Part shown: one piece after another, positions 18,976 to 52,875 of the stretch
Layout of the letters: every line of letters starts with the position of its first letter
Numbering within the stretch: position 1 is the first letter of the stretch
Assembly (NCBI GenBank): GCA_963847625.1
Contig: CAWKAR010000039.1
Location: 45,244 to 109,243 of the forward strand
Direction of reading: 5' to 3'
Source of the DNA: a candidate division FCPU426 bacterium
GTDB taxonomy: Bacteria; Oederibacteriota; Muellerivitia; Muellerivitales; Muellerivitaceae
Length of the DNA stretch: 64,000 nt
Position numbers and translations under genes: made by a program
Notes under the pieces: generated by a model
Database searches by the model: none
What the model saw: the letters and a program-made list of their open reading frames with translations, nothing else
Told to the model about the DNA's origin: nothing

Positions 18976-18992
18976 CCTTTTGAAAAGGATTA

Positions 18993-21275: not shown

Positions 21276-23658
21276 AATAATCCTCTTTTCATTCATAGGC
21301 TTTTTCCTGGCTCAGGTGAAAAGTGTGGCTTTGGCGGGCGACAACCTTTTCACGGTTGTCCCGGCCAATGACTCGACCTATGAGAGCCTCCAGCAACTGG
21401 AACAAGCCGGGTTGCTGACTTCCGGATCTTCCCGCGCGCCCCTTACGCGTTTTGAGGTTGCCGGGCTTATCATGAAAGCCCAGAAAAAATACGACGAGAT
21501 CGTCGTAGCCGATTCCGATTTGGATCTTCCGGCCCCTTCGGATATGACAATCACCCCACCTATTTCCACTCCCACTCCTGCTGCGGCTGCACCTGCGGCG
21601 GCTGTTCCCGCTAAAACGGCAGTTCCCACGCTCTCACCCACGCCTGATGAGGCGGTTGTGCTGGCACAGGCATTGAAAAGCCTGCACAACCTGAAGGAGG
21701 CCTATCAATATGAACTCGACCGCGTAAAAGGCGATGTGAAAATGACGGAAGACCAAGAAACCACCGTGGAAAACTCACAATATGCCCTTTGGAAACGTCT
21801 CCAGGGAATCACTGAGTACCCCACCATCACCTGGCATGGGCTGGGGAGAGCTTTTGGTATTTCGCGGCAATACTGGGGCGATCCGGCATATTCCTCCTTG
21901 GGTTCAGCCGAGCGGGAAGGTTTCGGTTACCTGGATTTTCAGCCCATAGGGGTGGTTTCTAAACAAGTTCGGTGGGACGCGGTTTTGAGGTATCAAACGG
22001 CTTTTGAGTCGAACAACTATCCCGGCATCGATTGGTTGTTGTTCCGCAGAGCGACCATGGAATTCAATCCTTCCTGGTTTTCCGCTACAGTGGGGGATTT
22101 TGAGGAATCCTATACGCCTTTGACCCTTTGGAACCGAAACAACCTGGATCTGCGTTACATGCCCGAAATGTACCAGCGCGCCGACGATACTTACAAATAT
22201 GAAAATTACCTGAACCAAGAGCCGGATTGGCCGTTCCGGGGCGCTCGCGTGGGAACCGCACTATTGTGGCCCGAATCGGATCTTATGGACCAGTTTAAGG
22301 TTTCCGTCATGACGGATATGATCCGGAATGCTTTCGACGATAACAATAAGGTTGGTGTTTTTTACGGTTTCGACCAATTCACCGGCTGGATTGTCGGAAC
22401 CAACGGCGAGATCAAACTAAAAAGGTGGTACTTAGGCGGCGGAACCTCCCTCCAACTGGCATTGGACGCCTATGGACTGTTATTGGATGATCCCCTGAAC
22501 ACCAACAAGCCTGGAGCTCCCTATTCTCCCTATAACCCGGATACTTGGGGCCATCAATACCGGATTTCCAGTCTCAAGCCTTCCGTAGACGCCGGGGTTG
22601 GAGGGGATACGTCCATCGGGATGGTTTGGGAGTGGGCTTCCGTCACATATGTGGACGACAAAATGGATTCATTGAAGAATATGGAGGATTATGCGGTGAT
22701 GGGCGGACCCTATTTGCGGTTCGGCAAATCAAAAATATCATTCAATTACCTGAACGTCGGCCCCTATTTTTATTCTCCCCTGGCCCAAACCCGCCAGGAC
22801 GAGGTTTCAGCCCCTACGGCAGCCTCGCCGGTGGCATCCGGATTCTTGCCGACTTCCGAGCTCTTTACACCCGCCTTGCGAAGCCGGTTTTTCCTCAGCG
22901 ATGTGCCCCGGCCAGGTGAAATTTACAGTTTCTACGACCGGACCCAGGATAATACCTTCCCTTATGGATTGGGGACTCCCAACCGTCAGGGAACTGGTTT
23001 TGAAGTGGACGTTAAAACCCTTCCTAAGGATTCATTGAAAATCCTTGGATCGGTCTATTTTGTACAGGAAATCAGTGGTAACCTTGTTGTGGACAGCGCT
23101 GGAACGGGTTATGTGCCTGTGGACGCACCGCCATTTGAGACGGTTCCCGTCCGTAATTTCACCTATGTGAATATTGGATCTTCATTCAATTTGGGACCCG
23201 TCATCGGAATGGGCCGGGATTTGGTACTGGGGACCAATGTCCGTTACGAAAAAACCACCAGTTCGATTGGGACCTTAACCAGTATTTGGGTTTTAGGGGG
23301 GGTGAAAATCGGGGTTTTGGATGGATGGGATGTTTCCGCATCCTACGGGAGTCAAGCGGTCACCGGAACGGAAGCTGGTTATGTTTACGCTGATTCCACC
23401 GGGGTTTCGCACCAAACCTTTTTGGCCCGTTATCCCTATCTTTTCGACAATTCCGATTTGGGCTATTACCAACCATTTAGTGTCAACGGTACCAACCAGA
23501 GCGTCCAGCTGTCCAGCGAAGTCCGGACAAGCCGGAATACGAGGTTTTACGCGGATTACGGCTTCACCAGTGGCGATGTCGTACCCTATGTGGGGACTGC
23601 CAACACGGGGACCTTGCATAACGAGTTTATGGAGTTGACTTATGAAATCCAATTTTAA
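21259..23658 (+). CDS. Outer-membrane protein paralog 3 (OmpM/Slp-like)
   Basis: 17-nt overlap with the upstream gene. Signal peptide. SLH-like YESLQQLEQAGLLTS...LTRFEVAGLIMKA. Ala/Pro-rich linker, coiled coil, beta-rich domain with the same conserved blocks (VGDFEESYTPLTLWN; NVGPYFYSPLAQT). Ends LTYEIQF. Confidence 0.65.
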   Translation: MKRISKIILFSFIGFFLAQVKSVALAGDNLFTVVPANDSTYESLQQLEQAGLLTSGSSRAPLTRFEVAGLIMKAQKKYDEIVVADSDLDLPAPSDMTITPPISTPTPAAAAPAAAVPAKTAVPTLSPTPDEAVVLAQALKSLHNLKEAYQYELDRVKGDVKMTEDQETTVENSQYALWKRLQGITEYPTITWHGLGRAFGISRQYWGDPAYSSLGSAEREGFGYLDFQPIGVVSKQVRWDAVLRYQTAFESNNYPGIDWLLFRRATMEFNPSWFSATVGDFEESYTPLTLWNRNNLDLRYMPEMYQRADDTYKYENYLNQEPDWPFRGARVGTALLWPESDLMDQFKVSVMTDMIRNAFDDNNKVGVFYGFDQFTGWIVGTNGEIKLKRWYLGGGTSLQLALDAYGLLLDDPLNTNKPGAPYSPYNPDTWGHQYRISSLKPSVDAGVGGDTSIGMVWEWASVTYVDDKMDSLKNMEDYAVMGGPYLRFGKSKISFNYLNVGPYFYSPLAQTRQDEVSAPTAASPVASGFLPTSELFTPALRSRFFLSDVPRPGEIYSFYDRTQDNTFPYGLGTPNRQGTGFEVDVKTLPKDSLKILGSVYFVQEISGNLVVDSAGTGYVPVDAPPFETVPVRNFTYVNIGSSFNLGPVIGMGRDLVLGTNVRYEKTTSSIGTLTSIWVLGGVKIGVLDGWDVSASYGSQAVTGTEAGYVYADSTGVSHQTFLARYPYLFDNSDLGYYQPFSVNGTNQSVQLSSEVRTSRNTRFYADYGFTSGDVVPYVGTANTGTLHNEFMELTYEIQF

Positions 23659-24550
23659 CCGGCAAAAAGAAACCAGAATCCCTGTCCGGAAGACCCTTTC
23701 GGTCCGAATAGCAATCGGTTTTGCTATCGCTTTAATTCCATTAATCGCAGGTTTTTTGGGCTGTAAAAACAGCGTGCCTTCTTATGGAACCTATCCTGAC
23801 CCTGGTTCCACCTTGGACTGGAGCACGGTGGCTAATTTTGATTCCAATTCCGCCACCGTCAACCCGAACCTTTTTGAATCGAGTAATCCCCCCACCTACA
23901 AGTTGAAAACGGTGGGTGGCGCTGTTACGGCGGTAAACGACTGGTCGGCTTACATTACTATATCTTCGAACCCACCCACTGTGCAAAACAACACCGTTGT
24001 CCTCGGCGGGGCTACCACTTTGACGATCCCATTTGCACCCTGGTTGGACAGTCCCGGAGCGGCCGGCACATCTCATGCTTTCCACGTGACCGGCGCGCTC
24101 ATAGACCCGGGAGATTATTCAAGCTTTGACTCGGTGAAATTGCAAGCTCAGATGGAGGGAGGCGGGTTTTATGACGCCAGTTTTTTCACGGGGGTCAAGT
24201 ACTACCTGAAGGTGGCAAGCGACGACAGCACGCTTTACCGTTTTTTCAGCATCCCGGTTTACCAGACAACCAGCCCCGTTGGGGGCGGTGGATGCATGGG
24301 CGGGCCGAGGCTTTGCGACGATTCTTTCGCGGCGGATTTCAGCAGCGGCACCGGCGGCCAATGGAAACTATTCAGCTATAAATTCTCTGATCTGCATCAA
24401 TTGCAACCCGGTGTCATCACGAATCCGCCCACTTTGAGCGGGGTCAACCTTCAGCAGATATTTTTCTTGGAATGGGACGAGGGCAGGAACAATCAACCCG
24501 GTGTTTCATATTTTGATTTTTGGGTGGACGACATCGAGTTCTTTAAGTAA
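23642..24550 (+). CDS. CBM-like lipoprotein
   Basis: 17-nt overlap with OMP3. Lipobox IAGFLGC. VANFDSNS ... FFTGVKYYLK ... WKLFSYKFSDL ... FDFWVDDIEFFK. Confidence 0.6.
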   Translation: MKSNFNRQKETRIPVRKTLSVRIAIGFAIALIPLIAGFLGCKNSVPSYGTYPDPGSTLDWSTVANFDSNSATVNPNLFESSNPPTYKLKTVGGAVTAVNDWSAYITISSNPPTVQNNTVVLGGATTLTIPFAPWLDSPGAAGTSHAFHVTGALIDPGDYSSFDSVKLQAQMEGGGFYDASFFTGVKYYLKVASDDSTLYRFFSIPVYQTTSPVGGGGCMGGPRLCDDSFAADFSSGTGGQWKLFSYKFSDLHQLQPGVITNPPTLSGVNLQQIFFLEWDEGRNNQPGVSYFDFWVDDIEFFK

Positions 24551-24589
24551 CGGGGAGTCCGACATCAGGTTTGACCCCGGGAGGTTATC

Positions 24590-25507
24590 ATGAAAGGCAT
24601 ATGGCTTCGGACATCGTTGGTTTTATTTTCCGCGGTATTTACCGCGGGAGTATTGTGGCTTTCCCAGGGCTGCAATTATCAAATACCGTCCTTGGCGGCG
24701 GCAGTGGCCACTCCCCAGGCCACGAACGTGGTCAGTAATTTCACAAACGGTTCCTTGAAGATGAACCCTTCGTTAAAGGGTGCTGACGGCGGTTATTTCC
24801 AGCAGATCACCTATGGGGGAGCGCCGGGGCTCACCAACATGATCAACAACAGCCTCCAGCCCAATATCCTGGAGGCGAATCCCGGGAACGGAAGCAGCGT
24901 ATACGCGGTCCATCTTTACGGGGCGCAGTACGACTATTGCGCGACAGGCCTCGGTTCGTCCACTTACCCCGCCTTCTTTCTTTACGGTTTCTTGAGCAAC
25001 GATCCAGTGAAGCATTATCTCTTCGACCTGAGTCCATTTACAGGCGTCAAGTTCGATATCAATATCAAGATCGATGATGGAGTGGTTCTCGGCACTCAAA
25101 ACACCACCAAAACCCAGGATGGTGCTTATCAAAGAATGTTCGCCATCGGCGTGGCCCAACAAACCCCTCCCACCAACGATCCGGGAGGCATTTGCCCTCC
25201 CTCCTTCAGCTCCAATTGCTATGACTATTATTGGGGGGATAGTAGTGCCTTTCCCGGCCCCGGGTCGGGATGGAGTCCGGTCAGTTTCCTTTTTTCCAAT
25301 TTGACAACTTCGACTTGGGGCGTAAACCTTGGTGCCTTGACTGACCCTTGCAACGGCACAATTAACTATTCCGGAGTTTCTCTCCCTTGTCCATCCAGCG
25401 GTAGTATGCTCACACAGGCCCTTTTTCTCATCTGGAAATTCGGAGACAACGGCGCCTGCCACAACGTTTATGTGGATTTTTGGGTGGATAACGTCGCGTT
25501 TTATTGA
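24590..25507 (+). CDS. CBM-like lipoprotein
   Basis: Signal peptide with lipobox LSQGC. VSNFTNGS ... FTGVKFDINIK ... WSPVSFLFSNL ... YVDFWVDNVAFY. Multiple Cys pairs. Confidence 0.6.
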   Translation: MKGIWLRTSLVLFSAVFTAGVLWLSQGCNYQIPSLAAAVATPQATNVVSNFTNGSLKMNPSLKGADGGYFQQITYGGAPGLTNMINNSLQPNILEANPGNGSSVYAVHLYGAQYDYCATGLGSSTYPAFFLYGFLSNDPVKHYLFDLSPFTGVKFDINIKIDDGVVLGTQNTTKTQDGAYQRMFAIGVAQQTPPTNDPGGICPPSFSSNCYDYYWGDSSAFPGPGSGWSPVSFLFSNLTTSTWGVNLGALTDPCNGTINYSGVSLPCPSSGSMLTQALFLIWKFGDNGACHNVYVDFWVDNVAFY

Positions 25508-38160: not shown

Positions 38161-39054
38161 TCAGGATGTGTAAAGATTTTTCATAGCTTCCAAAATGATG
38201 GCTTCTTGAGGACCCCAAATTCTCGAATCGGTCGAAGAAAAAACTGCGAAAGTTCTCAAGCCGCAGGCCGAAGCCAATTGAGTCACCCCACTGTCATTTC
38301 CGAGGAAGACCGCGGATTGGGAAAAAACAGCCGCTAAATCCCGAAGTTCCAAAGGTTGGTTCAGGACTTGGACATCCTTTAAATCCCCGAAGGCTTTTCG
38401 GATTTGGTCTATGTTTTTTTCTTCGGCTTCCCCCCAAACCACCAATACCTGCTTTTGGGATTCTTTCACGGCCCTTTCGGCCGCGTTTCTAAAAAATGAA
38501 AGTGGGGCATTCTTGGCCGGGCTTCCGCTACCGGGGTGGATCACCAGGGGAGCCGAGAGTCCCAATGAGGACAGGATGGTTTCTCCCTTTTTGCGCATGG
38601 CATCTCCGATCCGCAGTTTGGATAGCCGGAAAGGTGAATCGGGGGGCAAGCTTTTTCCTGCGGCTGTTTCTAACCAATATTCAGCCGCCCATCGGGCTTC
38701 CTTTAAAAATTCATCGAAGGTTTTGGCGGATTGATGGATTTTTAAGCCGGGAATTTCTAAAATCTTTTTTAGGATATTATCATCGGGTTCCTTAAAGAAA
38801 AGATAGGCATCACTGTAATAAGACCAGAAAGGATCTGGACCGTTAGTCATTAGATTTTGAAGAACTTTTTCCAGGGAAAGGATTTCTTGGACGCCCATCA
38901 AGTCAGCACCCAAGGAGCTGTAGGGAAAAGTGCCGGCAACCGTAACAGGTGCGGAAGATTGAAGAAATTGAAGGGCCGGTAAGGTCAAGAGACAGTCCCC
39001 CAAACTGCCGGCGGTCAGCACGATTGTTTTTTGTTTTTCCAAGGTAGATGCCAT
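38161..39054 (-). CDS. Glycosyltransferase family 9 (ADP-heptose:LPS heptosyltransferase-like)
   Basis: C-terminal LGNDSGVTQLASACGLRTFAVFSSTDSRIWGP matches the GT9 donor-binding signature; 297 aa. Confidence 0.7.
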   Translation of the reverse strand: MASTLEKQKTIVLTAGSLGDCLLTLPALQFLQSSAPVTVAGTFPYSSLGADLMGVQEILSLEKVLQNLMTNGPDPFWSYYSDAYLFFKEPDDNILKKILEIPGLKIHQSAKTFDEFLKEARWAAEYWLETAAGKSLPPDSPFRLSKLRIGDAMRKKGETILSSLGLSAPLVIHPGSGSPAKNAPLSFFRNAAERAVKESQKQVLVVWGEAEEKNIDQIRKAFGDLKDVQVLNQPLELRDLAAVFSQSAVFLGNDSGVTQLASACGLRTFAVFSSTDSRIWGPQEAIILEAMKNLYTS

Positions 39055-39374: not shown

Positions 39375-41810
39375 ATGAAATTACTCAAATTCAAGATCAT
39401 TTTCTCCACGTTAATTCTGCTTGCTTGGCCTTTGTTTCTGAACGCCCAAACCCAGCCGGCTACCATTACGATCAACTCGGCTTCAACCATCACCTCATTC
39501 GTTCCCATCAGCATTTTTGGAAACAACACGGCCTATTGGACGAATAACGGTGATGACATGTCTGTGCAGCCTTTGGTCCAGGCGGTGGGAAATTATTTCA
39601 TACGATATCCAGGCGGTTCCTCCTCGGATATTTTCCATTGGAACGGATCGGGAACTTTTAATTCCAACGGTTATTGGATTCCCAGCGGAACCACTTATGC
39701 TCCTGGTCATCAATGTAATCAAACTTACGCGGGAACAACTGCATCCAATGCCGGGGGTTATTCCAATATAACAGACGGAGATATCTCCACGACCTGGCTT
39801 TCTAACGTGGACACGGATTTACCAAACCACCAGTGGGTCCAGCTTTCCGCAGGGATTCAAGTGAACGCCATTACCATTGTCTGGGGTAACCCTTACGCCA
39901 CATCATTTCAAATTCAATACTATAACGGCTGGCCTTGGAGCAATAGCGTCTTGGAAAGTGCATGGTCATCAGTGGTGACTATGACGGGCACCGGGGGAAC
40001 TCAGGGGGTGACTTTTGCCCCCATTTCCCCTCAATATATCCGCATCCTCATGACTGTCTCTTCGGGGCCGGTGACGGCCAACTTGGGTTCGGTGACGGTC
40101 ATCGGCCCCGCTTACGCCATCGCTGAGGCGTCTTTATATAATGGGACGACTTTAGTTTCCTCGAGCAATACCCAGGTTTGGGTTTCCAGTACAGATCCCG
40201 CTTCCAGCAACGGCTGGCAACCTTCCTTCGACTTTGAATCCTTCATGTCCTATATGAACGCCTTCGGCACCAACCTGAAAGCTATTCCCATCATCACCGT
40301 CAATTTTGGGACCGGAACACCGGCCGAGGCGGCCTCCTGGGTTTATTACGCCAATAAAGTGGCGCATCCACAATACCCGAACTGGGCCGGCTGCCATTAC
40401 TGGCAGATCGGCAACGAGGACGAAGGTTTCTGGGAGGCGGGTGGGCCTATTCCCACTCAGGATTATGTCAGGCGTTATATCGAGTATTACGACGCCATGA
40501 AGGCCGTGGATTCGAGCATCATTATCACGGGCCCGGTGGCAGGAGGATTCAATACGCCATCCAATATGTACGATGGAAACGGTGTGATGCAGGATTTCAT
40601 CAATATTTTAAAAGTGAAAGGAAAACTTGATCATCTCAACGCCATCGATTTCCATTGGTATCCCGAGGGAGGCAGCTATACCGATGCCAGCGCCTTGGCC
40701 AGCACCTCCTCCTTGGATTCTTATCCGGGGCAATTGAACGGCTGGCTTTCAAACGCGGGTATTGTCAGTCCATCCGCCGTGCCGGTGATGATGACCGAAT
40801 ACAACGTCGATCCTGGGAATGAAAATTTCCAGGTCCAGTTGGGGGACGGCCTTTGGCTGGCCGACGCCTTGGGACATTTCATCACGGACTTCGGGAGCCG
40901 CGGTTACTGCAACCTTTGGGACACCTTGAATGGGGGAAATAACGACGGGGATTACTACATAACCGCTGGTGATTTAGGATACCTGGACGCGGCCTATAAC
41001 TATGCACCGCGCGCTACCTATTGGGCCATGAAAATGATGACCAACGATTGGGCTATCCCTGGTGATACCAATGCCCATCAACTGATTACAGCCAACAGCA
41101 GTACTGCGTCCCTCGCGGCTTACGCGGACTATCGCCCTGATAGCATCATTTCGTTGGTGGTGGTCAATAAAGACCCGAGCAACTTTTATAATACATGGGT
41201 GACAGGCATCCCTTACACCCCCAACGCCACCGCCGATGAGTGGACCTTCGATTCCACCAATTACCAGTGGGTGATCACCGGGTCAACGCCATACCACGCC
41301 ACGCCGAATACGGCCCCGACTACCCTCACATTAAGCGGGGTAGCCAGCTCATTCCCTGTCACTTTTGGGCCTTATTCTATAACGGTTTTGCAGATTAACC
41401 ATCCAGCCACTTCTACGCCTACCTTTACTCCACCCCCCTGTACCGACGGTTCCGGACACACTTGTACTCCCACCAATACCCCCACCGCGACGATCACGCC
41501 CACTCCCACGGCGACGGTTACGAATCTCAATGTTCTTTTTCCCAACCCTATTCGGGACCAAACACCCCTGAACTTTTATTACCATTTGGATTCCAACAAT
41601 GACTGGGTGAAAGTCAAAATATTCACGACTTCATTCAGAAAAATTTACGAGCAGGACAGCTTGCCGTTTAAACAAGGAACACACCCTTACCAGCTGAATT
41701 GGGCCCAATCGGGATTAAACCCAGCCAATGGACTTTATTATGTTGTTTTGGACCGGCTAAATGGCGGTCATGAGAGCCTCCAGATCATGAAACTTCTCAT
41801 CTTTCGCTAA
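39375..41810 (+). CDS. Secreted glycoside hydrolase (clan GH-A; GH51/GH39/GH30-like catalytic barrel) with an inserted F5/8-type C (discoidin/CBM32-like) domain and a C-terminal Por-secretion-tail/FlgD-Ig-like sorting domain
   Basis: Signal peptide. FIRYPGGSSSDIFHW (GH51-like). NITDGDISTTWLS...HQWVQLS...VNAITIVWGNPYATSFQIQY (discoidin-like). WQIGNEDEG (acid/base NE). VMMTEYNV (nucleophile TE). Thr/Pro linker, then a ~90-aa CTD. Confidence 0.65.
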   Translation: MKLLKFKIIFSTLILLAWPLFLNAQTQPATITINSASTITSFVPISIFGNNTAYWTNNGDDMSVQPLVQAVGNYFIRYPGGSSSDIFHWNGSGTFNSNGYWIPSGTTYAPGHQCNQTYAGTTASNAGGYSNITDGDISTTWLSNVDTDLPNHQWVQLSAGIQVNAITIVWGNPYATSFQIQYYNGWPWSNSVLESAWSSVVTMTGTGGTQGVTFAPISPQYIRILMTVSSGPVTANLGSVTVIGPAYAIAEASLYNGTTLVSSSNTQVWVSSTDPASSNGWQPSFDFESFMSYMNAFGTNLKAIPIITVNFGTGTPAEAASWVYYANKVAHPQYPNWAGCHYWQIGNEDEGFWEAGGPIPTQDYVRRYIEYYDAMKAVDSSIIITGPVAGGFNTPSNMYDGNGVMQDFINILKVKGKLDHLNAIDFHWYPEGGSYTDASALASTSSLDSYPGQLNGWLSNAGIVSPSAVPVMMTEYNVDPGNENFQVQLGDGLWLADALGHFITDFGSRGYCNLWDTLNGGNNDGDYYITAGDLGYLDAAYNYAPRATYWAMKMMTNDWAIPGDTNAHQLITANSSTASLAAYADYRPDSIISLVVVNKDPSNFYNTWVTGIPYTPNATADEWTFDSTNYQWVITGSTPYHATPNTAPTTLTLSGVASSFPVTFGPYSITVLQINHPATSTPTFTPPPCTDGSGHTCTPTNTPTATITPTPTATVTNLNVLFPNPIRDQTPLNFYYHLDSNNDWVKVKIFTTSFRKIYEQDSLPFKQGTHPYQLNWAQSGLNPANGLYYVVLDRLNGGHESLQIMKLLIFR

Positions 41811-43058: not shown

Positions 43059-43204
43059 AATTTTTTCGCCGTTTTGGCTGGATAACCTTATTTAATTCCT
43101 TGCTGAAATCACACAATTGAAGAAAATAGTTCTTCGAGAGGGGTACGGTATGCCGTACTCCTTAATTTTTACCCGCGGTTTATTTGGTGAATAAAAGGAT
43201 TTTT

Positions 43205-44932
43205 ATGCGAGTCTCCAAAGCCTTGATTCCCACCGTCAAGGAAACTCCCGGCGAGGCGGAAATTCCCTCCCATAAACTTATGCTTCGGGCTGGATTGATG
43301 CGTAAGGTGGCCTCAGGCATCTACGAGTACCTTCCCCTGGGCGTGCGTTCCATCTTGAAAGTGTCAAATATCATCCGGGAGGAAATGACCCGGGCTGGTG
43401 CCCAGGAAGTGCTTCTTCCCATCATGACACCTGCTGAACTTTGGGTGGAAACGGGCCGATGGCAGAAATACGGGAAGGAACTCATGCGCTTGAAGGACCG
43501 CCATGAGCGCGACTACGCTCTCGGACCCACGCACGAGGAGGTTATCACTGACCTTGTGCGAAGGGAACTCAAGAGTTACAAACAACTGCCCTTGAATCTT
43601 TTCCAGATCGCCACCAAATTCCGGGACGAGGTCCGTCCCCGGTTCGGGGTCATGCGCAGCCGAGAGTTTCTCATGAAGGATGGTTATTCCTTCGACGTGG
43701 ACAACGAGGCTTGCGACAAGACTTATTGGGCCATGGTGGAGGCTTACAAACGGGTTTTCAAGCGATGTGGCTTGTCTTTTTCCCCTGTGGAAGCGGACTC
43801 GGGCCTGATTGGGGGGAGCTTCACCCATGAATTCATGGTCCTAGCCGAGACCGGAGAAGCAGCCATCGCCATGTGTGAAGCTTGTGGGTATGCGGCTAAC
43901 CTAGAAAAAGCCGTTTCGGTTCCATTACCTCACACTGCTGAAGAATCTGGCCCGGCTTTCTCGAAGGTGGAAACACCCGGCAAGCACACCGTAGAAGATG
44001 TTGGCAAATTCCTGAAATTGCCGCCTCAACAATTCATCAAGACCCTCATATTCATAGCGGATGGGAAACCGGTGGCCGTCATGGCGCGAGGGGACCACGA
44101 GGTCAACGAGATCAAGGTCAAGAACTACCTCCAAGCCACCGAACTAGCCCTGGCCTCATCCGAGAAGGTCATGGAAGCAACCGAAGCCCCGGTGGGGTTT
44201 GCCGGGCCCGTGGGATTGAAAGGAATACGCGTGATTTCGGATCAAGCCCTGAAGGGAGGGCACCAATACGTGACAGGGGGGCTGGAAAAGGATATCCATC
44301 TGAAAAACGTTGAATTCGGAAGAGATTTTCCCGAGCCTGAGTGGGGCGATTTTCGAAATGTTGCCTCGGGGGAGGGATGTCCCCATTGCGGCAAGCCTGT
44401 CAAAGCGGGACGTGGCATCGAGGTGGGACAGACCTTCAAACTGGGGCTCAAGTACTCGACTTCCATGCATTGCGTTTACCTAGATGAGAAGGGCCAGGAA
44501 CGGGAGGCGGTCATGGGCTGCTATGGAATCGGCGTCACCCGCACGGTGGGCGCGGCTATCGAGCAGCATAATGACGCGGACGGCATCCGGTGGCCCATTT
44601 CTATCGCGCCCTATCAGGTGCACCTGCTTTGCCTGAATCCCGCCGAAACCGAGGTGACCCGGGTTGCCGACCAGTGTTACGTGGATTTAATGAAAGCCGG
44701 ATACGAAGTTCTTTATGATGACCGCGCCGACACCACAGCGGGGTTCAAATTCAAGGATGCGGATCTTTTGGGCATGCCGCTCGCGGTACGAGTGGGCGCC
44801 AAGGGGTTGAAGGAAGGGCTGGTCGAGGTAAAACGACGACGGGAAAAGGAAGTCTCCAAGGTCCCGATGGCAATGGTGTTGGACAAGGTCAAGGAATTAG
44901 CCAGCGAGGAATGGAAAATCTGCACCCCCTGA
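43205..44932 (+). CDS. proS: Prolyl-tRNA synthetase (bacterial type with editing domain)
   Basis: MRVSKALIPTVKE start; class II motifs FRDEVRPRFGVMRSREFLMKDGYSF; anticodon-binding C-terminus. Confidence 0.9.
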   Translation: MRVSKALIPTVKETPGEAEIPSHKLMLRAGLMRKVASGIYEYLPLGVRSILKVSNIIREEMTRAGAQEVLLPIMTPAELWVETGRWQKYGKELMRLKDRHERDYALGPTHEEVITDLVRRELKSYKQLPLNLFQIATKFRDEVRPRFGVMRSREFLMKDGYSFDVDNEACDKTYWAMVEAYKRVFKRCGLSFSPVEADSGLIGGSFTHEFMVLAETGEAAIAMCEACGYAANLEKAVSVPLPHTAEESGPAFSKVETPGKHTVEDVGKFLKLPPQQFIKTLIFIADGKPVAVMARGDHEVNEIKVKNYLQATELALASSEKVMEATEAPVGFAGPVGLKGIRVISDQALKGGHQYVTGGLEKDIHLKNVEFGRDFPEPEWGDFRNVASGEGCPHCGKPVKAGRGIEVGQTFKLGLKYSTSMHCVYLDEKGQEREAVMGCYGIGVTRTVGAAIEQHNDADGIRWPISIAPYQVHLLCLNPAETEVTRVADQCYVDLMKAGYEVLYDDRADTTAGFKFKDADLLGMPLAVRVGAKGLKEGLVEVKRRREKEVSKVPMAMVLDKVKELASEEWKICTP

Positions 44933-45026
44933 ACGGCGATCAGTGGCGATGAAACACCCACGATAAACAAAAGCTTGGTTGGGAAGCCCGACGCATTCAG
45001 CAAATCTTCTATTAAGGACCGCTTGC

Positions 45027-46181
45027 TTGAAAATCGCCCTGGTTACCGACACCTATTTTCCCCGAATCAACGGCGTTTCCGCGTCCACCCGGATTTTTGC
45101 GGAGGAATTCGATCGGCTCGGCCACGAAGTCCATATTTATGCCCCGGCTTTCCCGAACCATATCGACGAGGCGGGCCGCATCCAGGTCCACCGTTTTCCT
45201 TCCTGGTATCTTTTTTTCGATCCCGAGGACCGTTTAGGATATCCTTCCGGGGATAAGAAACTGATTCGTCGGTTCATCGACATGAAGTTCGATGTTGTGC
45301 ATACCCAAACCCCTTTCACCATAGGGGGTCCCGCGGTGAAATGGGCCCGGCAATCAGGTGCGAAATTGGTTCACACTTACCATACCCTTTTCGCGGCTTA
45401 CGTGGAGCATTACCTCTGGTTTTTCCCCAAGAGTTTCAGCGTTTGGTACGCCAAAACCGCCAGCCGCCGCTATTGCAATTCCTGTGACCTGGTGGTAACC
45501 CCGTCCTCGGAAATGCGGGAGGTGCTCCTGGGTTACGGCGTGACAAAGCCCATCGAGGTGGTACCCACCGGTATCCGGTTGGAAAAATTCAAAGGAAGCG
45601 ATCCAAAAAGATTCCGGGAACTTAAGGGTTATAAACCCGAGGACAAGGTCCTTTTATTCATGGGCCGGGTGGCGGAGGAAAAAAACATCGATTTTTTACT
45701 TCGAGTAATCCACCGATTGGTAGCCCGGATACCTTGTTTGCATTTCCTGATCGCGGGGGAAGGAGCGGCCAAGAAACGCCTCCAGAAAATGGCTTTCGAA
45801 TTGGGCTTGGGTGACCGCGTTTTATTTGCCGGTTACTTGGACCGGGAGGATTGGCGGGATTGTTACGCCGGGGCGGACCTTTTCATTTTAGCTTCGGTCA
45901 CCGAAACCCAGGGGCTGGTTGTTACCGAGGCCATGGCAGCCGGTGTACCTGTTGTGGCGGTGGGGGAGATGGGCGTCAAGGAAGTGATGGCTTCCGGCAA
46001 GGGGGGCATCCAAACCCAGTTGGACGAAGATGAATTTTCCGAGGCTGTCTACCGAATGATGACCGACCCGGCGCTCTACGCCCAAAAAAAATCGGAAACA
46101 CTTGTTGAAGCCGAGAAATGGTCTTCCACCACCATGGCCAAGAAAATGATCAAAGCGTATGAAAACATTCCCCGGAAATGA
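45027..46181 (+). CDS. Glycosyltransferase family 4 (GT-B, group 1)
   Basis: TTG start with AAGGA RBS. KIALVTDTYFPRINGVS N-terminus. C-terminal EX7E region ASVTETQGLVVTEAMAAGVPVVA. Confidence 0.8.
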   Translation: MKIALVTDTYFPRINGVSASTRIFAEEFDRLGHEVHIYAPAFPNHIDEAGRIQVHRFPSWYLFFDPEDRLGYPSGDKKLIRRFIDMKFDVVHTQTPFTIGGPAVKWARQSGAKLVHTYHTLFAAYVEHYLWFFPKSFSVWYAKTASRRYCNSCDLVVTPSSEMREVLLGYGVTKPIEVVPTGIRLEKFKGSDPKRFRELKGYKPEDKVLLFMGRVAEEKNIDFLLRVIHRLVARIPCLHFLIAGEGAAKKRLQKMAFELGLGDRVLFAGYLDREDWRDCYAGADLFILASVTETQGLVVTEAMAAGVPVVAVGEMGVKEVMASGKGGIQTQLDEDEFSEAVYRMMTDPALYAQKKSETLVEAEKWSSTTMAKKMIKAYENIPRK

Positions 46182-47025
46182 ATGGATCGCGCGGACAAGG
46201 AATGTCTTGCCCCTAACATGGTTTGTTGCGTTGGCCTTATGCTTTCTAACGGGTTTATCGGCCCGCGCGCAAGATCTCCAGAAACCCTGGGTTTTCCTGC
46301 CGGGCCCGCCCCAGTTTAACCCACTTCTCGCCGACCCGAGGGAACCCCAAACCTCCATCATCGCCCATACCAATCAAAGCCGTTTTGAGGGTGCCGTGGG
46401 GGCCCAACTGGAGATCCTCCGTTATAACGATCCCGGCGGAACTCATTGGGCCGCAGGACTCTTCGGATCGGGTTTTATTTTACTGGATGAGAATGGCGCC
46501 ACCTTTCCCGCCCGGGCCAACGACTGGGTCGCGGGTTTGGACCTCAGCGAGAGCACCGGAATCCTTTCCCACCGCTTGGAATTCTTGCACCAAAGCTCCC
46601 ATCTTGGGGATTCCTTAGAGGGTGTTCAAGAACCTATCATCTACAATGGCGAGAACTTCAATTATGTCTGCTCCCTCCAGCCTTGGGAAAATTTAAGATT
46701 TTATGCGGGAATTGGCGCTTGGGAAAATTTATTCCCGCCGGATAACGCTTTTTTTGCCCCTTTCGGCGTGGAAGTTTTTTCCCCCCCATTGGGTTTTATC
46801 GGAACTTATATGAGGGGTTACACGGCCTGCCATTTGGAATGGAAAGGCCAGGCAGGCGGCCAATGGGATGGAGCGTTCCAATGGGGAATCCAATGGAAGT
46901 GGAAAAAAAATGAACCCCGCGCGGTCCGTTTGGCTCTCGTTTATTACGACGGTAATTACCAATTCGGGCAATTTTACCTGAGACACGATTCACATTTAGG
47001 TATTGGAATTTACTTTGACCCATGA
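46159..47025 (+). CDS. Secreted hypothetical protein, paralog A (conserved WVFLPGPPQFNPLLADPRE and HQSSHLGDS motifs; ends GIYFDP)
   Basis: Signal peptide. Tandem paralog of the next gene with shared N- and C-terminal motifs and an HxSSHLGD block. Confidence 0.5.
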   Translation: MKTFPGNEWIARTRNVLPLTWFVALALCFLTGLSARAQDLQKPWVFLPGPPQFNPLLADPREPQTSIIAHTNQSRFEGAVGAQLEILRYNDPGGTHWAAGLFGSGFILLDENGATFPARANDWVAGLDLSESTGILSHRLEFLHQSSHLGDSLEGVQEPIIYNGENFNYVCSLQPWENLRFYAGIGAWENLFPPDNAFFAPFGVEVFSPPLGFIGTYMRGYTACHLEWKGQAGGQWDGAFQWGIQWKWKKNEPRAVRLALVYYDGNYQFGQFYLRHDSHLGIGIYFDP

Positions 47026-47032
47026 GAAAACG

Positions 47033-47902
47033 ATGAAAAGATTTTTCTATCCCCTATTTGCTTTATGCCTGACGGTCGTCTTCGGGGCGGTTCAAGCCCA
47101 GGAGAGCCCTTGGGTGTTCCTGCCGACTGTGCCGGTTTTTGAACCCCTTCTGGGTGATCCGAGGGAAGTCCAAAACGGAATCAATTTCAGGACGGGACGG
47201 TTCAATTTCGAGGGTTCAGTCGGTTCCACGCTTGAGTTTCTCCAGTGGCGGCCAACCGGATCGACACGATGGGGATGGGGCATCTTGGGTGAGGGTTTTG
47301 TCAGCCTGAATACCGCGAGTCAAAACGATTATCCCAACCGGGCGGTAACCTGCGATGGAAATTTGATTTATGACGAGTTTCCGGAGATAGCAAATGATTG
47401 GTACTTTGGAATGTATTTCAGCGAATCCTCCGGTTATTTCTCAAACAGGTTTGACTACACTCACGTCAGCTCTCACCTTGGCGACGAGCTTTTCAACTAT
47501 GTAAAAAGTTTCATCTACACCCGAGAAAGTTTCCGTTTCACTTCCTCGTACCAGCCCTCGGAGCGATTCCGCTTATATGCCGGCTTGGGCTACTATCCCC
47601 ATATGTCACCGGATGGCAAACGGTTGTTCGCTCACGCGGGAACGGAGTGTTATACGGCTTTTTTCCCCTTCATTTTAGCGACAACCGGAAGGGGATATTT
47701 CACCTATGATGTGAAAGCCAAGCAGGAAGCCGGTGGAGTTGTGAACCAGGAATTCCAATTGGGTTTTCAATGGAAATGGAACAGAAAAACCCAGGAAGTC
47801 CTTCACCTTGGCATTCTTTATTTCAATGGAAATTCAGAGTACGGCCAGTTTTACCTTCAAAATGACAATCATTGGAGCTTTTTTATTTATTTTGATCCAT
47901 GA
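47033..47902 (+). CDS. Secreted hypothetical protein, paralog B (WVFLPTVPVFEPLLGDPRE, THVSSHLGDE; ends FIYFDP)
   Basis: Signal peptide MKRFFYPLFALCLTVVFGAVQA. Same motif set as paralog A. Confidence 0.5.
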   Translation: MKRFFYPLFALCLTVVFGAVQAQESPWVFLPTVPVFEPLLGDPREVQNGINFRTGRFNFEGSVGSTLEFLQWRPTGSTRWGWGILGEGFVSLNTASQNDYPNRAVTCDGNLIYDEFPEIANDWYFGMYFSESSGYFSNRFDYTHVSSHLGDELFNYVKSFIYTRESFRFTSSYQPSERFRLYAGLGYYPHMSPDGKRLFAHAGTECYTAFFPFILATTGRGYFTYDVKAKQEAGGVVNQEFQLGFQWKWNRKTQEVLHLGILYFNGNSEYGQFYLQNDNHWSFFIYFDP

Positions 47903-48095: not shown

Positions 48096-48123
48096 TTGAC
48101 AAACACTCTATAGGTTGTATAGT
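48096..48123 (+). promoter_or_regulatory. Sigma70-like promoter upstream of polC
   Basis: TTGACA, 16-nt spacer, TATAGT, ~57 nt upstream of the polC start. Confidence 0.4.
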
Positions 48124-48179: not shown

Positions 48180-51100
48180 ATGACGCTCGAAGGTTCCCCG
48201 GCCGCGGAATCCGAACCCCCATCTACTCTCTTTTATGATTTTATCCAGCAAATTCCCCTCCAGTGTTTTGAAAAAGAAAGGTTCCTCCATTCGGAGCTTT
48301 TAGGGGTCCAGGTTTATCCCGAGCGCACCCTGGTTGTGATGCGGCTGAAAATGCCTGCTCCTGTCTCAGTTGAAACCTACGCGAACGTCACCCGTTGCCT
48401 GAAGGAAAGCCTGCCAGACGTAGGCCGGATCGTCTTGGATGTCCACTACGCCGCTTCCGTGATCGGGCCGGCCGACTACCTGGCGGCCCATGAAAAGGAT
48501 TTGATCTATTGCCTTTCCGAGGAAGCCGACATCTCCGAGAGCTGGTTTTCCTACTACCGCGTCGAGTTAAGGGACACGAATCTCTTGTTTCAGGTTCCCA
48601 ATGAAGCCGCCCGTCAGCAGTTGGAACGAAAAGAATGCGTGCGTGTGTTGAGGGAAATTCTCAAAAAGCGTTGTGGCGTGGATTTGAAAGTGGATCTCCA
48701 GGTCAACCCGTCCATTATTCCAGAAAAACCCCACTCGGTCGAACCACCGCCTGTTACCGCTTTTCCCAAGGGCCCGATTGAGAACATCCTATTTGGCCGG
48801 AAGATTTCAGAAACGGCCCAATCCCTGACTGTAACCGACGAGCAAAGAGGTTTTGTGGGGCAGGGGGAGGTCATCCTTTACGACGTATTCCAGACCAGAA
48901 GCGGCCGCCAATTGGCGAAAATGACCCTCACCGATTACACCGATTCCCTGGATGTGCTTTTCTTTTTTGAGAACGACGGAAAATTCAAGGGTGGGATTAA
49001 AGAAGGCGATTGGCTCAGGGTGCGGGGGGACTTGCGTTTCGACAGCCGGGATCCCAACGAAATGGTCCTGAACGCTAGGGATATCACGAGAATCAATCCA
49101 CCTGCGACCCGGATGGACCAAGCGCCTGAAAAACGAGTGGAGCTCCATTGCCACACCCAAATGAGCCGGATGGACGGACTATCCAAGATCGACCGGTTGA
49201 TTGAGACCGCCGCCCGCTGGGGGCATCCCGCTATCGCCCTCACTGATCATGGCGTGGTTCAGGCCTATCCCGAGGCACGGGCTGTGGCGAAAAAAAACGG
49301 CATCAAGCTGATTTTGGGAATGGAAGGTTACCTTGTTGACGAGTTCAAGAGGGATAAGAACCTGCCCATCTACCACATCATTCTTCTTGTGAAAAACCGG
49401 ATTGGCCTCAAAAACCTCTACCAACTCGTGACAGAAAGCCATTTAAAGTACTTTTACAAAAGGCCCTTGATTCCCCGGGCCCTCCTCGCGAAACATCGGG
49501 AAGGACTGTTCCTGGGCTCGGCTTGCGAACAAGGGGAGGTATGGCAACATTTGCTGCGCAAGGACAAACCCCTGGAGGAAGTAGCCAGCTTTTACGACTA
49601 TATCGAGATACAGCCATGCGCCAATAACGAGTTCATGATCCAAGAAGGCATGGTGAAGAGCATGGATGAACTCCAGAATTTAACCCGCACCCTTTATGAG
49701 ACCGGCAAAAAACTAGGCAAGCTGGTTCTGGCTACTGGGGATTCCCATTTTCTCAATCCCCAAGATGATGTGTACCGAAAAATCCTTCACGCCGGAATGG
49801 GTTATGGGGTGGAAAGGCAGGCACCCCTTTTCTTTAAAACCACCCAGGAACTCAAGGGGGATTTCGATTATTTTGGTGAGGAGGTGGCCCATGAGTTGGT
49901 GGTAACCAACCCTCGCAAGGTGGCGGAAATGATAGAGGAAGTGGAACCCCTCCCGACAAAGACTCTTTCCCCCCACTTGGAGGGAGCGGATGAGCTTTTA
50001 AGGAAAACAGCCACCCACGAAGTCCATCGGCTTTATGGTGACCCTCTTCCGGATTTCATTGATAAGCGTCTTCAAAAGGAACTCAACGCCATCATCAACA
50101 ACAAGTTCTCCACTCTTTACGTCATCGCCATGAAGCTTGTGAAAAAATCAATCGCGGACGGCTATGTGGTCGGAAGCCGTGGCTCGGTAGGGAGTTCCCT
50201 TGTGGCTTTTCTCAGCGGAATCACGGAGGTGAACCCCTTACCGCCGCATTGGCGTTGTGAGGAAGGGCACTACCACGAATTTCCGGAAAAACCTGCCTCC
50301 ACGGCTGGCGTGGATCTGCCGGAAAAAAACTGCCCAACTTGCGCTAAACCTTTGCTGAGGGACGGCTTTTCCATTGCCTTCGAAGTGTTCATGGGTTTCG
50401 AGGGAGATAAAATGCCGGACATCGACCTGAATTTCTCCGGCGAATATCAACATGTGGCCCATAAATATGTGGAAGAGCTTTTCGGTAAAGAGTACTGTTT
50501 CCGAGCGGGAACCATTTCGGCCGTGAAGGACCGGATCGCCTTTGGCTTCGTGAAAAAATACGTGGAACAATCGGGCCGCAAGACCCGTAACGCCGAGTTG
50601 AACCGCCTAGTCAAGGGATGCTCGGGAGTTTCCAAAACAACAGGCCAGCATCCGGGTGGCATCGTCATCTTGCCCAAGAACATGGAAATCACCGACGTCT
50701 GCCCCGTCCAGTATCCCGCGGACAACAAAGACGGGGACGTCATCACCACCCATTTCGATTACGACAGCATGCATGACTGCCTCGTCAAACTGGATATCCT
50801 AGGCCATGACAACCCCACCAGCCTCAGGCGGCTCGAGAACATGACAGGCGTTTCACCTGCCAAAATTCCCTTGAACGACGCTAAGACCATGAGCCTTTTT
50901 TCCGGCATCCAAGCGCTTGGCTTGAGGGAAAAAATCGATAAGGACCTGGGCACCCTGGGCGTACCCGAATTCGGGACATTTTTCGCCATGGACATGCTTC
51001 GGGATACCCGGCCCACGAAATTCGAAGAATTAGTAAGACTTTCTGGCCTAGCTCACGGTACAAACGTTTGGCTGGGTAACGCCCAGAATTTGATCAAGAA

Positions 51101-51842
51101 AGGCACTGCGGGCCTATCAACGGTCATCTCTACACGCGACGATATGCTGAACGACCTGAGAGCCCGGAAAATGGATGAGGCTTTGGCTTTCAAAATCATG
51201 GAGTCGGTGAGAAGAGGGAAAGGATTGACAGCCGATTTTGAAAGTGCCATGGCGGAAGCCAATACGCCCGCTTGGTACGTGGAAAGTTGTAGGAAAATCA
51301 AGTATATCTTCCCGAAGGCCCACGCCGTGGCTTATTGCATCATGAGTTTTAAGATTGCTTGGTTCAAGGTTCACCATCCCCTGGCCTTTTATGCGGACTA
51401 TTTCACCAACAAGAGCTTCGGCTTCGACGCTACCGTCGCCTGTGATGGGATCAGCCGGGTCAAGGACCGAATCAAGCATATCCAGTCCATCGAGAAACCT
51501 ACGGCAAAAGAATTGGACGAGTCCTCCGTGTTGGAAGTGGCCGAGGAAACTTACGCCCGGGGTTTTCGTTTCCTCCCGGTGGATCTCTACCAGTCCACTA
51601 GCCGAACCTTTCAAATCGAGGAGCAATCGGGGGAAAAAATGCTCCGCCCACCGTTGATTTGCTTGCCCGGCTTGGGAGAGACCGCCGCAGAAGCCATTGT
51701 AGAGGAACGCAAAAAGGGTGCCTTTAATTCGGTGGAAGACCTCCAACAGCAATGTAGCGTGAATAAAAATGTGGTGGAAATCCTCAAAACCCATGGCTGC
51801 CTGAAGAATATTCCAGATACCAAACAAGTTTTGCTTTTTTAG
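48180..51842 (+). CDS. polC: PolC-type DNA polymerase III alpha subunit lacking the 3'-5' exonuclease insert
   Basis: PolC N-terminal domain, OB domain, PHP (HCHTQMSRMDG...ALTDHGVVQAYPE...LILGMEGYLVDEF), then directly YHIILLVKNRIGLKNLYQLV... (the second half of PHP) with no DEDD exonuclease block. Palm (PDIDLNF), fingers, and (HhH)2 C-terminus. 1220 aa versus ~1430 for canonical PolC. Confidence 0.8.
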   Translation: MTLEGSPAAESEPPSTLFYDFIQQIPLQCFEKERFLHSELLGVQVYPERTLVVMRLKMPAPVSVETYANVTRCLKESLPDVGRIVLDVHYAASVIGPADYLAAHEKDLIYCLSEEADISESWFSYYRVELRDTNLLFQVPNEAARQQLERKECVRVLREILKKRCGVDLKVDLQVNPSIIPEKPHSVEPPPVTAFPKGPIENILFGRKISETAQSLTVTDEQRGFVGQGEVILYDVFQTRSGRQLAKMTLTDYTDSLDVLFFFENDGKFKGGIKEGDWLRVRGDLRFDSRDPNEMVLNARDITRINPPATRMDQAPEKRVELHCHTQMSRMDGLSKIDRLIETAARWGHPAIALTDHGVVQAYPEARAVAKKNGIKLILGMEGYLVDEFKRDKNLPIYHIILLVKNRIGLKNLYQLVTESHLKYFYKRPLIPRALLAKHREGLFLGSACEQGEVWQHLLRKDKPLEEVASFYDYIEIQPCANNEFMIQEGMVKSMDELQNLTRTLYETGKKLGKLVLATGDSHFLNPQDDVYRKILHAGMGYGVERQAPLFFKTTQELKGDFDYFGEEVAHELVVTNPRKVAEMIEEVEPLPTKTLSPHLEGADELLRKTATHEVHRLYGDPLPDFIDKRLQKELNAIINNKFSTLYVIAMKLVKKSIADGYVVGSRGSVGSSLVAFLSGITEVNPLPPHWRCEEGHYHEFPEKPASTAGVDLPEKNCPTCAKPLLRDGFSIAFEVFMGFEGDKMPDIDLNFSGEYQHVAHKYVEELFGKEYCFRAGTISAVKDRIAFGFVKKYVEQSGRKTRNAELNRLVKGCSGVSKTTGQHPGGIVILPKNMEITDVCPVQYPADNKDGDVITTHFDYDSMHDCLVKLDILGHDNPTSLRRLENMTGVSPAKIPLNDAKTMSLFSGIQALGLREKIDKDLGTLGVPEFGTFFAMDMLRDTRPTKFEELVRLSGLAHGTNVWLGNAQNLIKKGTAGLSTVISTRDDMLNDLRARKMDEALAFKIMESVRRGKGLTADFESAMAEANTPAWYVESCRKIKYIFPKAHAVAYCIMSFKIAWFKVHHPLAFYADYFTNKSFGFDATVACDGISRVKDRIKHIQSIEKPTAKELDESSVLEVAEETYARGFRFLPVDLYQSTSRTFQIEEQSGEKMLRPPLICLPGLGETAAEAIVEERKKGAFNSVEDLQQQCSVNKNVVEILKTHGCLKNIPDTKQVLLF

Positions 51843-52230: not shown

Positions 52231-52875
52231 TTGCTTTTTGATTTGCTTCCCGCCGTTTCGGATCAAACCCTAGTGATTACTTGTCACCCGTTCGACGCAG
52301 CCCATAATCCCCATTTAAAGTTCGAGAACGTCCATTGGACGGCCCTATTAATGAATATCAATTGTGAACCATTTCACTGCCAGCGTTTTCCGGAGGGACA
52401 GTGGATAAATCTTTCGGAGGAGTTGCCGTCTTTTCTGGAAGGCGGAGTTTTGGAAATTATCCCGGTCTTGCCCGGAAATAAAGAAACGTTGGGAGGATTT
52501 TTTTACGCAAACCAGGCTAGCCAGAAGATAACCAATTTGATCATGCAACATCGTTGGAACACTTTCCAGGAAGATATTCTTCAAGACCTTGAAAAAATTT
52601 ATCCTTTCTTTCGAAACGATCCATTCCTTGAAACCTGTTTTTGGGACAAAGTTTTTTTCCATTCCCAAAAGGATCATTTAGATCAGCAATCTTTTCATGA
52701 TATCGAAAGGGCTTTAAAATTCGGATATCCCGCGGCAAACCTTTTTTACAGTCAGGGAATCTATTTTTATCGGTTTGGATTTATCAAGAAAGCCATCTCA
52801 TCCCTTGAGGCGGCATCACGCCTTCCGGTGAATAGGACGCCTGCGCAACAATTTTTTGGATGTATTGAAAAGTAA
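52231..52875 (+). CDS. Hypothetical protein (C-terminal TPR-like helix pair) in an AT-rich insertion
   Basis: 214-aa ORF at ~40% GC, flanked by ~380 bp of AT-rich non-coding sequence on each side, located between polC and rimP. Confidence 0.4.
   Translation: MLFDLLPAVSDQTLVITCHPFDAAHNPHLKFENVHWTALLMNINCEPFHCQRFPEGQWINLSEELPSFLEGGVLEIIPVLPGNKETLGGFFYANQASQKITNLIMQHRWNTFQEDILQDLEKIYPFFRNDPFLETCFWDKVFFHSQKDHLDQQSFHDIERALKFGYPAANLFYSQGIYFYRFGFIKKAISSLEAASRLPVNRTPAQQFFGCIEK

Follow-up and report, generated by a model that had tools for sequence, protein, structure and literature searches.

Tandem DUF1207 proteins of candidate division FCPU426: predicted OMPLA-like outer-membrane barrels with a conserved His-Ser-His/Glu patch

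Two adjacent genes in a 64,000-nucleotide stretch of DNA from a candidate division FCPU426 bacterium (assembly GCA_963847625.1, contig CAWKAR010000039.1, positions 45,244 to 109,243 of the forward strand; the whole stretch is hereafter called the window) encode two related proteins, paralog 1 and paralog 2, that belong to the family DUF1207 and are predicted to fold into 12-stranded outer-membrane beta-barrels resembling that of the outer-membrane phospholipase OMPLA. A patch of histidine, serine and glutamate residues, nearly invariant in the family, is predicted to lie on the exterior of these barrels, and we propose, with middling confidence, that it constitutes the active site of an acyl-hydrolase or acyl-transferase acting on outer-leaflet lipids, the two proteins possibly forming a heterodimer.

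Family membership and predicted fold of the pair

Paralogs 1 and 2 share 38% identity over their full length (BLASTP, E 2e-68), far beyond chance, and both pass the gathering score of 22 of the Pfam family PF06727 (DUF1207), with 55.9 and 59.6 bits, respectively. The same family was identified in 88/88 homologues found in a collection of 5.8 billion proteins and in all 44 members of our alignment (best E 2.9e-113). The initial annotation had correctly described tandem paralogs with signal peptides and a set of shared motifs, all of which are present, but its statement that no family could be assigned does not hold. By an exhaustive hidden Markov model (HMM) search, DUF1207 comprises 3,068 clusters at 50% identity (2,346 at E<=1e-10), distributed over many diderm phyla (Desulfobacterota, Nitrospirota, Methylomirabilota, Planctomycetota, Spirochaetota, Proteobacteria, Bacteroidota and Chlamydiota). 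An exact-sequence look-up of the window's own protein as annotated (P0001) retrieved no record, and in a search of the accessible literature the name DUF1207 was found in a single paper and nowhere with a characterisation, the identifier PF06727 not being found. DUF1207 barrel genes were also noticed on contigs of a metagenome-assembled genome (MAG) labelled Nitrosotalea sp. (L076) and of an Anaerolineales MAG (L057), that is, in the bins of an archaeon and of a Chloroflexi bacterium; these are probably cases of bin contamination and not of true presence.

DUF1207 is a catalogued family without assigned function, of which the FCPU426 pair is a new and architecturally distinct variant, being barrel-only, anciently duplicated in tandem and terminated by [YF]FDP. 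The two proteins cover only positions 86/87-340 of the 342 positions of the PF06727 profile and, since only this part is matched, they represent a barrel-only form of the family. Most members of the family, the distant ones included, carry ~70 additional N-terminal residues, mapping to profile positions 2-55, that form an N-terminal periplasmic domain missing from the window proteins; BON-like matches to this domain, all below threshold, were obtained in 2/10 cases and are a hint only. Outside FCPU426, DUF1207 proteins are encoded by single-copy genes with no consistent neighbours, whereas the window pair is an ancient tandem. The carboxy-terminus differs as well: a phenylalanine or tyrosine residue, as expected from the beta-signal of the beta-barrel assembly machinery (BAM), terminates 106/148 representatives of the wider family, whereas 54 of the 65 FCPU426 proteins (P0001-P0065) end in [YF]FDP. 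A C-terminal proline residue is unusual for an outer-membrane barrel.

AlphaFold2, with the family alignment as input, produced models with a predicted local distance difference test score (pLDDT) of 91.9 and a predicted template modelling score (pTM) of 0.82 for paralog 1, and of 91.0 and 0.83 for paralog 2. These scores make both models confident. In each of them a signal-peptide helix precedes 12 long antiparallel strands, and the nearest solved structure to both predicted barrels is OMPLA, a result that is reproducible, with a margin of only 1-2 Z units over other 12-stranded barrels. The structural score of LpxR (PDB 3FID) is below those of OMPLA and of several porins. CT389 from Chlamydia trachomatis, another DUF1207 member, was independently modelled as a 12-stranded barrel and is also closest to OMPLA. 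It is safe to state that each paralog is a predicted 12-stranded outer-membrane barrel, reproducibly closest to OMPLA, homology between them being unproven. The proteins had been described as secreted, and they do have signal peptides, but they are better regarded as integral to the outer membrane: what AlphaFold2 predicts for both is an outer-membrane beta-barrel and not a soluble fold.

A conserved patch and its possible chemistry

Conservation was evaluated over 153 domain instances, taken from the 150 best representatives and the two window proteins. Residues D122, H144, S146, H148, G150, D151 and G265 are identical in 153/153 instances, including those of the HxSxHxGD motif, the histidine and serine pair of which had been pointed out in the initial annotation. 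Position 165 is occupied by glutamate in 148/153 instances and by aspartate in 3/153, while R180 and Q271 are each conserved in 152/153. The window proteins share with the Pfam DUF1207 members, CT389 among them, the complete set of D122, HxSxHxGD, E165, R180, G265 and Q271.

In the usual topology of outer-membrane barrels the N-terminus is periplasmic and the odd-numbered strands ascend. Strand 5 (residues 136-149) runs toward the cell surface, which places the motif at its outer end, and its even positions 136, 138, 140 and 142, being hydrophobic and variable, most probably face the lipid; the same face continues as the invariant H144, S146 and H148. In strand 6 (residues 162-176), E165 is located on the face of the hydrophobic and variable positions 167, 169, 171 and 175. 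We infer that H144-x-S146-x-H148 and E165 are exposed on the lipid-facing exterior, where the strand-5/6 hairpin reaches the outer leaflet. The opposite faces hold conserved polar residues (N120, D122, S137, R141, Q145, S147, S172, R180, Y182, E205, D225 and E261), which is consistent with a polar lumen.

A rival reading is that of a small non-enzymatic 12-stranded channel or transporter, of the KdgM/NanC type or similar to the copper exporter PcoB, in which the conserved polar residues would line a specific pore and the histidine, aspartate or glutamate residues would bind a metal or another solute. We consider this unlikely, as the invariant H144, S146, H148 and E165 are predicted on the outside face, where a pore-lining site would not sit, and no metal-resistance or sugar-acid genes are found beside the pair in FCPU426. 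OMPLA is itself a precedent, since its lumen is polar though it is no channel. The predicted exterior position bears likewise on the possibility of a structural or anchoring outer-membrane protein, in which the patch would be a protein-protein or lipid-binding interface involved, for example, in oligomerisation or lipopolysaccharide (LPS) binding. Such a role would agree with the literature search, which found no activity or characterisation for any DUF1207 member, and the N-terminal domain of the distant members, with its sub-threshold BON-like matches, might bind lipid or peptidoglycan. However, a HxSxHxGD motif that is invariant over 153 diverse sequences is typical of chemistry and not of an interface, and in a structural barrel it is usually the lipid-facing positions that vary most, as those next to the patch do here, so we regard a structural role as very improbable.

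For an enzymatic role, the closest comparison is with OMPLA (PldA, PF02253; PDB 1QD5, 1QD6 and 1FW2), whose 12-stranded antiparallel outer-membrane barrel corresponds to the fold predicted for both paralogs. LpxR is not known to use a serine nucleophile. In OMPLA the residues His142, Ser144 and Asn156 form a triad on the outside of the barrel, and the enzyme is controlled by dimerisation and by Ca2+ (PMC5043575). PagL (PF09411) has a Ser-His-Glu triad on the outside of its barrel, the same composition as that of the candidate triad of DUF1207 (PMC4402001). The active site of LpxR depends on Ca2+ and is situated between a loop helix and the wall of the barrel (PMC4402001). The motifs are not identical, since HxSxG...N in OMPLA contrasts with HxSxHxGD...E in DUF1207, which has an extra invariant histidine and a longer loop between strands 5 and 6. 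A putative correspondence exists in position, as the His and Ser of OMPLA reportedly close strand 5 and its Asn156 opens strand 6 (work of Snijder et al., 1999).

The resemblance to PagL had been anticipated in the initial annotation, which speculated about a PagL-type His-Ser hydrolase; the predicted exterior His/Ser/Glu patch agrees with that idea, but the PagL fold does not, as PagL is 8-stranded, the paralogs are 12-stranded with OMPLA as closest structure, and no PagL profile match was obtained at E<=10. Two outcomes named beforehand as fatal to that idea, a soluble non-hydrolase structure and a motif that varies among orthologues, were both looked for; neither was observed, the His/Ser block being invariant in orthologues as well as in distant relatives. 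Enzymes specialised in deacylating lipid A, with the LPS-tailoring function of PagL or LpxR and coupled to the neighbouring family 4 glycosyltransferase (GT4) gene in an LPS-modification module, would be compatible with the chemistry. This reading nevertheless appears quite unlikely: neither PagL nor LpxR profiles are matched, the barrels have 12 strands and not 8, and OMPLA clearly outscores LpxR, which is not the closest structural neighbour of the paralogs. Moreover, the GT4 protein is nearer to diacylglycerol and phosphatidylinositol glycosyltransferases than to WaaG, the pair also exists without GT4, and elsewhere the family shows no linkage with lpx or waa.

We favour a broader assignment, in which the paralogs would be acyl-hydrolases of the serine type, or possibly acyl-transferases like PagP, with lipids of the outer leaflet as substrate. 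Phospholipids, lipid A and glycolipids all come into consideration. The nucleophile would be S146 and the general base either H144, in the order seen in OMPLA and PagL, or H148, with E165 orienting the histidine and with G150 and D151 as candidates for the oxyanion hole or for a cation site. In FCPU426 the N-terminal periplasmic domain has been lost, and the genes occur as an anciently duplicated pair that is always adjacent. Family membership, the predicted fold, the conservation of the motif, the gene order and the age of the duplication are shown by the analysis, whereas the orientation of the residues, their equivalence to the OMPLA triad, the activity, the substrate and the dimerisation are inferred.

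Several observations weigh against this assignment. In the Foldseek ranking the top places were taken by generic autotransporter barrels, with poor root-mean-square deviations, and OMPLA was outside the top 50. Neither phmmer with paralog 1 nor the 44-sequence family profile gave anything meaningful against all PDB chains, and OMPLA (PF02253) has no detectable sequence or profile similarity to DUF1207: hhalign of DUF1207 against E. coli PldA (a query checked to be 100% identical to 1fw2) reached 12% probability, with nothing significant in local or global modes, and against a 20-sequence OMPLA profile, which is shallow and enterobacterial (>=71% identity), 2%; given this shallowness, a very remote homology is still conceivable. 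A lax Pfam scan (E<=10) of the 44 members returned DUF1207 only, with no PLA1 (PF02253), PagL or LpxR. The orientation of the residues derives from strand parity and from the hydrophobicity and variability of each strand face, averaged over the family. Two invariant histidine residues together with aspartate and glutamate could equally make a metal site. Finally, distant DUF1207 members have no conserved lipid-related neighbours: at 67 distant loci, no real family was present in more than ~4 loci by a crude clustering of six-frame open reading frames (ORFs), in which spurious ORFs, antisense or of low complexity, prevailed in these high-GC genomes, and the called-gene contexts of three distant homologues were mutually unrelated.

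Gene order and age of the duplication

The coordinates of the pair, of its sequence features and of the flanking genes are collected in Table 1. The mechanical ORF of paralog 2 extends over 47003..47902 (299 residues from the first possible TTG), but the ATG at 47033 leaves a gap of 7 nt after the stop of paralog 1. Both cleavage sites were assigned by reading the sequence, the one of paralog 1 following the AxA rule; in the models, residues 8-32 of paralog 1 form a low-confidence N-terminal helix and residues 5-18 of paralog 2 the corresponding one. Lipoprotein status was considered and rejected from the same reading, as the sole cysteine (in LALC and FALC) is preceded at position -1 by leucine, contrary to what a lipobox would have. 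PWVFLP..P.F.PLL.DPRE is common to both proteins, and both end in IYFDP (47008-47022 and 47885-47899).

Table 1. Features of the DUF1207 locus, in window coordinates
Feature	Position	Strand	Remarks
Terminator-like hairpin before proS	43138..43163	+	11-bp stem followed by a T tract; consensus match only
proS	43184..44932		upstream flank
GT4 glycosyltransferase	44979..46181	+	directly upstream of the pair; 23-nt overlap with paralog 1
DUF1207 paralog 1	46159..47025	+	ATG start, 288 aa; predicted 12-stranded outer-membrane beta-barrel, without N-terminal periplasmic domain
Signal peptide, paralog 1	46159..46269	+	residues 1-37, putative cleavage ARA|QD; sequence reading
HQSSHLGD block, paralog 1	46588..46611	+	H144, S146, H148, G150, D151; candidate catalytic His/Ser, where strand 5 ends on the outer side
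E165, paralog 1	46651..46653	+	start of strand 6; candidate third active-site member
DUF1207 paralog 2	47033..47902	+	likely ATG start (MKRFF...), 289 aa, normal signal peptide
Signal peptide, paralog 2	47033..47098	+	residues 1-22, putative cleavage VQA|QE; sequence reading
HVSSHLGD block, paralog 2	47462..47485	+	from translation; invariant columns in alignment A3
E165, paralog 2	47525..47527	+	T-R-E at residues 163-165; invariant column in A3
Promoter-like site, AT-rich spacer before polC	48096..48123	+	11/12 consensus positions; consensus match only
PolC-type polymerase	48180..51842	+	NCBIfam NF001688, 1361 bits (cutoff 873)

A scan of one genome per species located close relatives (41-77% identity) in MAGs labelled candidate division FCPU426. 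The order ispG-proS-GT4-DUF1207-DUF1207-polC-rimP-nusA-infB is kept in relatives down to ~50% identity, as observed in the contexts of loci L001-L004 and by an HMM-based check of L005-L016. The position of the pair after a GT4 gene, between proS and polC, was correctly noted from the start, and is sustained by the Pfam domains of the former and the NF001688 match of the polymerase. The description of this segment as an LPS-related insertion is, however, not supported. With conserved synteny, a GC content of the cluster (0.48-0.55) that is ordinary against the window mean of 0.51, and no repeats or mobility genes at the cluster borders, the locus is a conserved housekeeping neighbourhood, and a recent insertion was rejected. 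The hairpin before proS and the promoter-like site before polC suggest that proS, GT4 and the two DUF1207 genes may form one transcription unit. The slot between polC and rimP is variable within this conserved synteny, with an acetyltransferase gene in L001, nothing in L004 and, in the window, a 214-residue ORF without family (52231-52875, +) in a stretch of GC 0.40.

As to the LPS connection, the GT4 protein (Glyco_transf_4, 1.5e-35; Glycos_transf_1, 9e-35) has as best NCBIfam match the alpha-monoglucosyl-diacylglycerol synthase Mgs (137 bits over the full length, below the cutoff of 400), followed by GlcN-PG synthase and IagA/BgsA, also below cutoffs, whereas the LPS GlcNAc-transferase scores 58 bits. 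Its best PDB relative is PimA (2gej, 1.6e-18, full length), while WaaG reaches ~1e-7 over a partial alignment. To judge from these matches, the enzyme resembles membrane-lipid glycosyltransferases far more than WaaG. The linkage is, furthermore, not universal: GT4 accompanies the pair in L001-L007, L009-L011 and L015-L016 and is absent in L008 and L013, so that an obligatory coupling was rejected. As the GT4 matches are below the curated cutoffs and the linkage is not obligatory, the pair may or may not be linked to glycolipids, and a link to LPS is not supported. The only gene of the window with an LPS-core flavour is one resembling glycosyltransferase family 9 (GT9) heptosyltransferases (38161-39051, -; Pfam 4e-11; heptosyltransferase I 40 bits, cutoff 185), with three genes between it and the pair.

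In L008 (5791-7612) and L013 (5800-7621), a second tandem pair is found in an unrelated neighbourhood without GT4, proS or polC, next to genes for a HAD hydrolase, a response regulator, PilZ, an AI-2E transporter and PPK2. One MAG contains both L013 and L012, a locus of the canonical type. The pair itself is the conserved unit, as the two barrel genes stay adjacent even without GT4. In a neighbour-joining tree of the barrel cores, the first genes form one clade and the second genes another, from which it follows that the duplication is older than the split between the FCPU426 genomes sampled; both copies were retained. A metagenomic representative of 596 residues (P0209) consists of two fused DUF1207 barrels, each with HESSHLGD; either it is a genuine protein with two barrels or two genes were merged in the gene call.

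The two ancient paralogs have each retained the complete motif, are always found together and lack the N-terminal domain. They may therefore work as a heterodimer, by analogy with OMPLA, which is activated by dimerisation; the constant adjacency and the two-barrel fusion P0209 are circumstantial evidence for such a form. A wider proposal, which we put forward tentatively and find rather doubtful, is that DUF1207 as a whole would be an unrecognised, sequence-distinct family of outer-membrane lipid enzymes, with an OMPLA-like 12-stranded barrel and an exterior His-Ser-His/Glu active site. In FCPU426, an obligate heterodimer of the two paralogs would have replaced a regulatory N-terminal domain, as a hard-wired form of the activation of OMPLA by dimerisation, and would act, possibly, on glycolipids made by GT4.

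Other genes of the window and meaning for the family

The polymerase that follows the pair has 1220 residues, against 1445 in the NF001688 profile, and contains the PolC N-terminal II domain, the N-terminal OB fold and an uninterrupted PHP domain (residues 321-471), but no exonuclease (RNase_T) domain. Its orthologues in L001, L003 and L004 have the same list of domains, and this domain content suggests that the FCPU426 lineage may have a PolC without built-in proofreading exonuclease. Upstream of lepA, five consecutive abutting ORFs (1033, 760, 799, 302 and 305 residues) with no Pfam match at E<=1e-5 make up a block of unknown function of ~9.6 kb (15874-25507, +). Closer to the pair, 39375-41810 (+) encodes a secreted protein of 811 residues that has a domain of the F5/8 type C (galactose-binding-like) and a linker rich in Thr and Pro. 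Its C-terminal region, which weakly resembles FlgD_ig (E 0.018), may be a sorting domain. In L001, large proteins related to it by the F5/8 type are encoded at the same position.

The enzymes known to act inside the bacterial outer membrane are few, namely OMPLA, PagP, PagL, LpxR and OmpT, and they control lipid asymmetry, envelope stress responses and the way in which the immune system recognises lipid A. For the window itself the meaning is modest: a housekeeping neighbourhood of conserved order contains two genes of a family that is catalogued but uncharacterised. Should DUF1207 be a further family of such enzymes, thousands of outer-membrane proteins now called "hypothetical" would gain a function, CT389 among them and many from environmentally important and mostly uncultured phyla, and this would offer a hint of how such bacteria repair or remodel the outer leaflet of their outer membrane.

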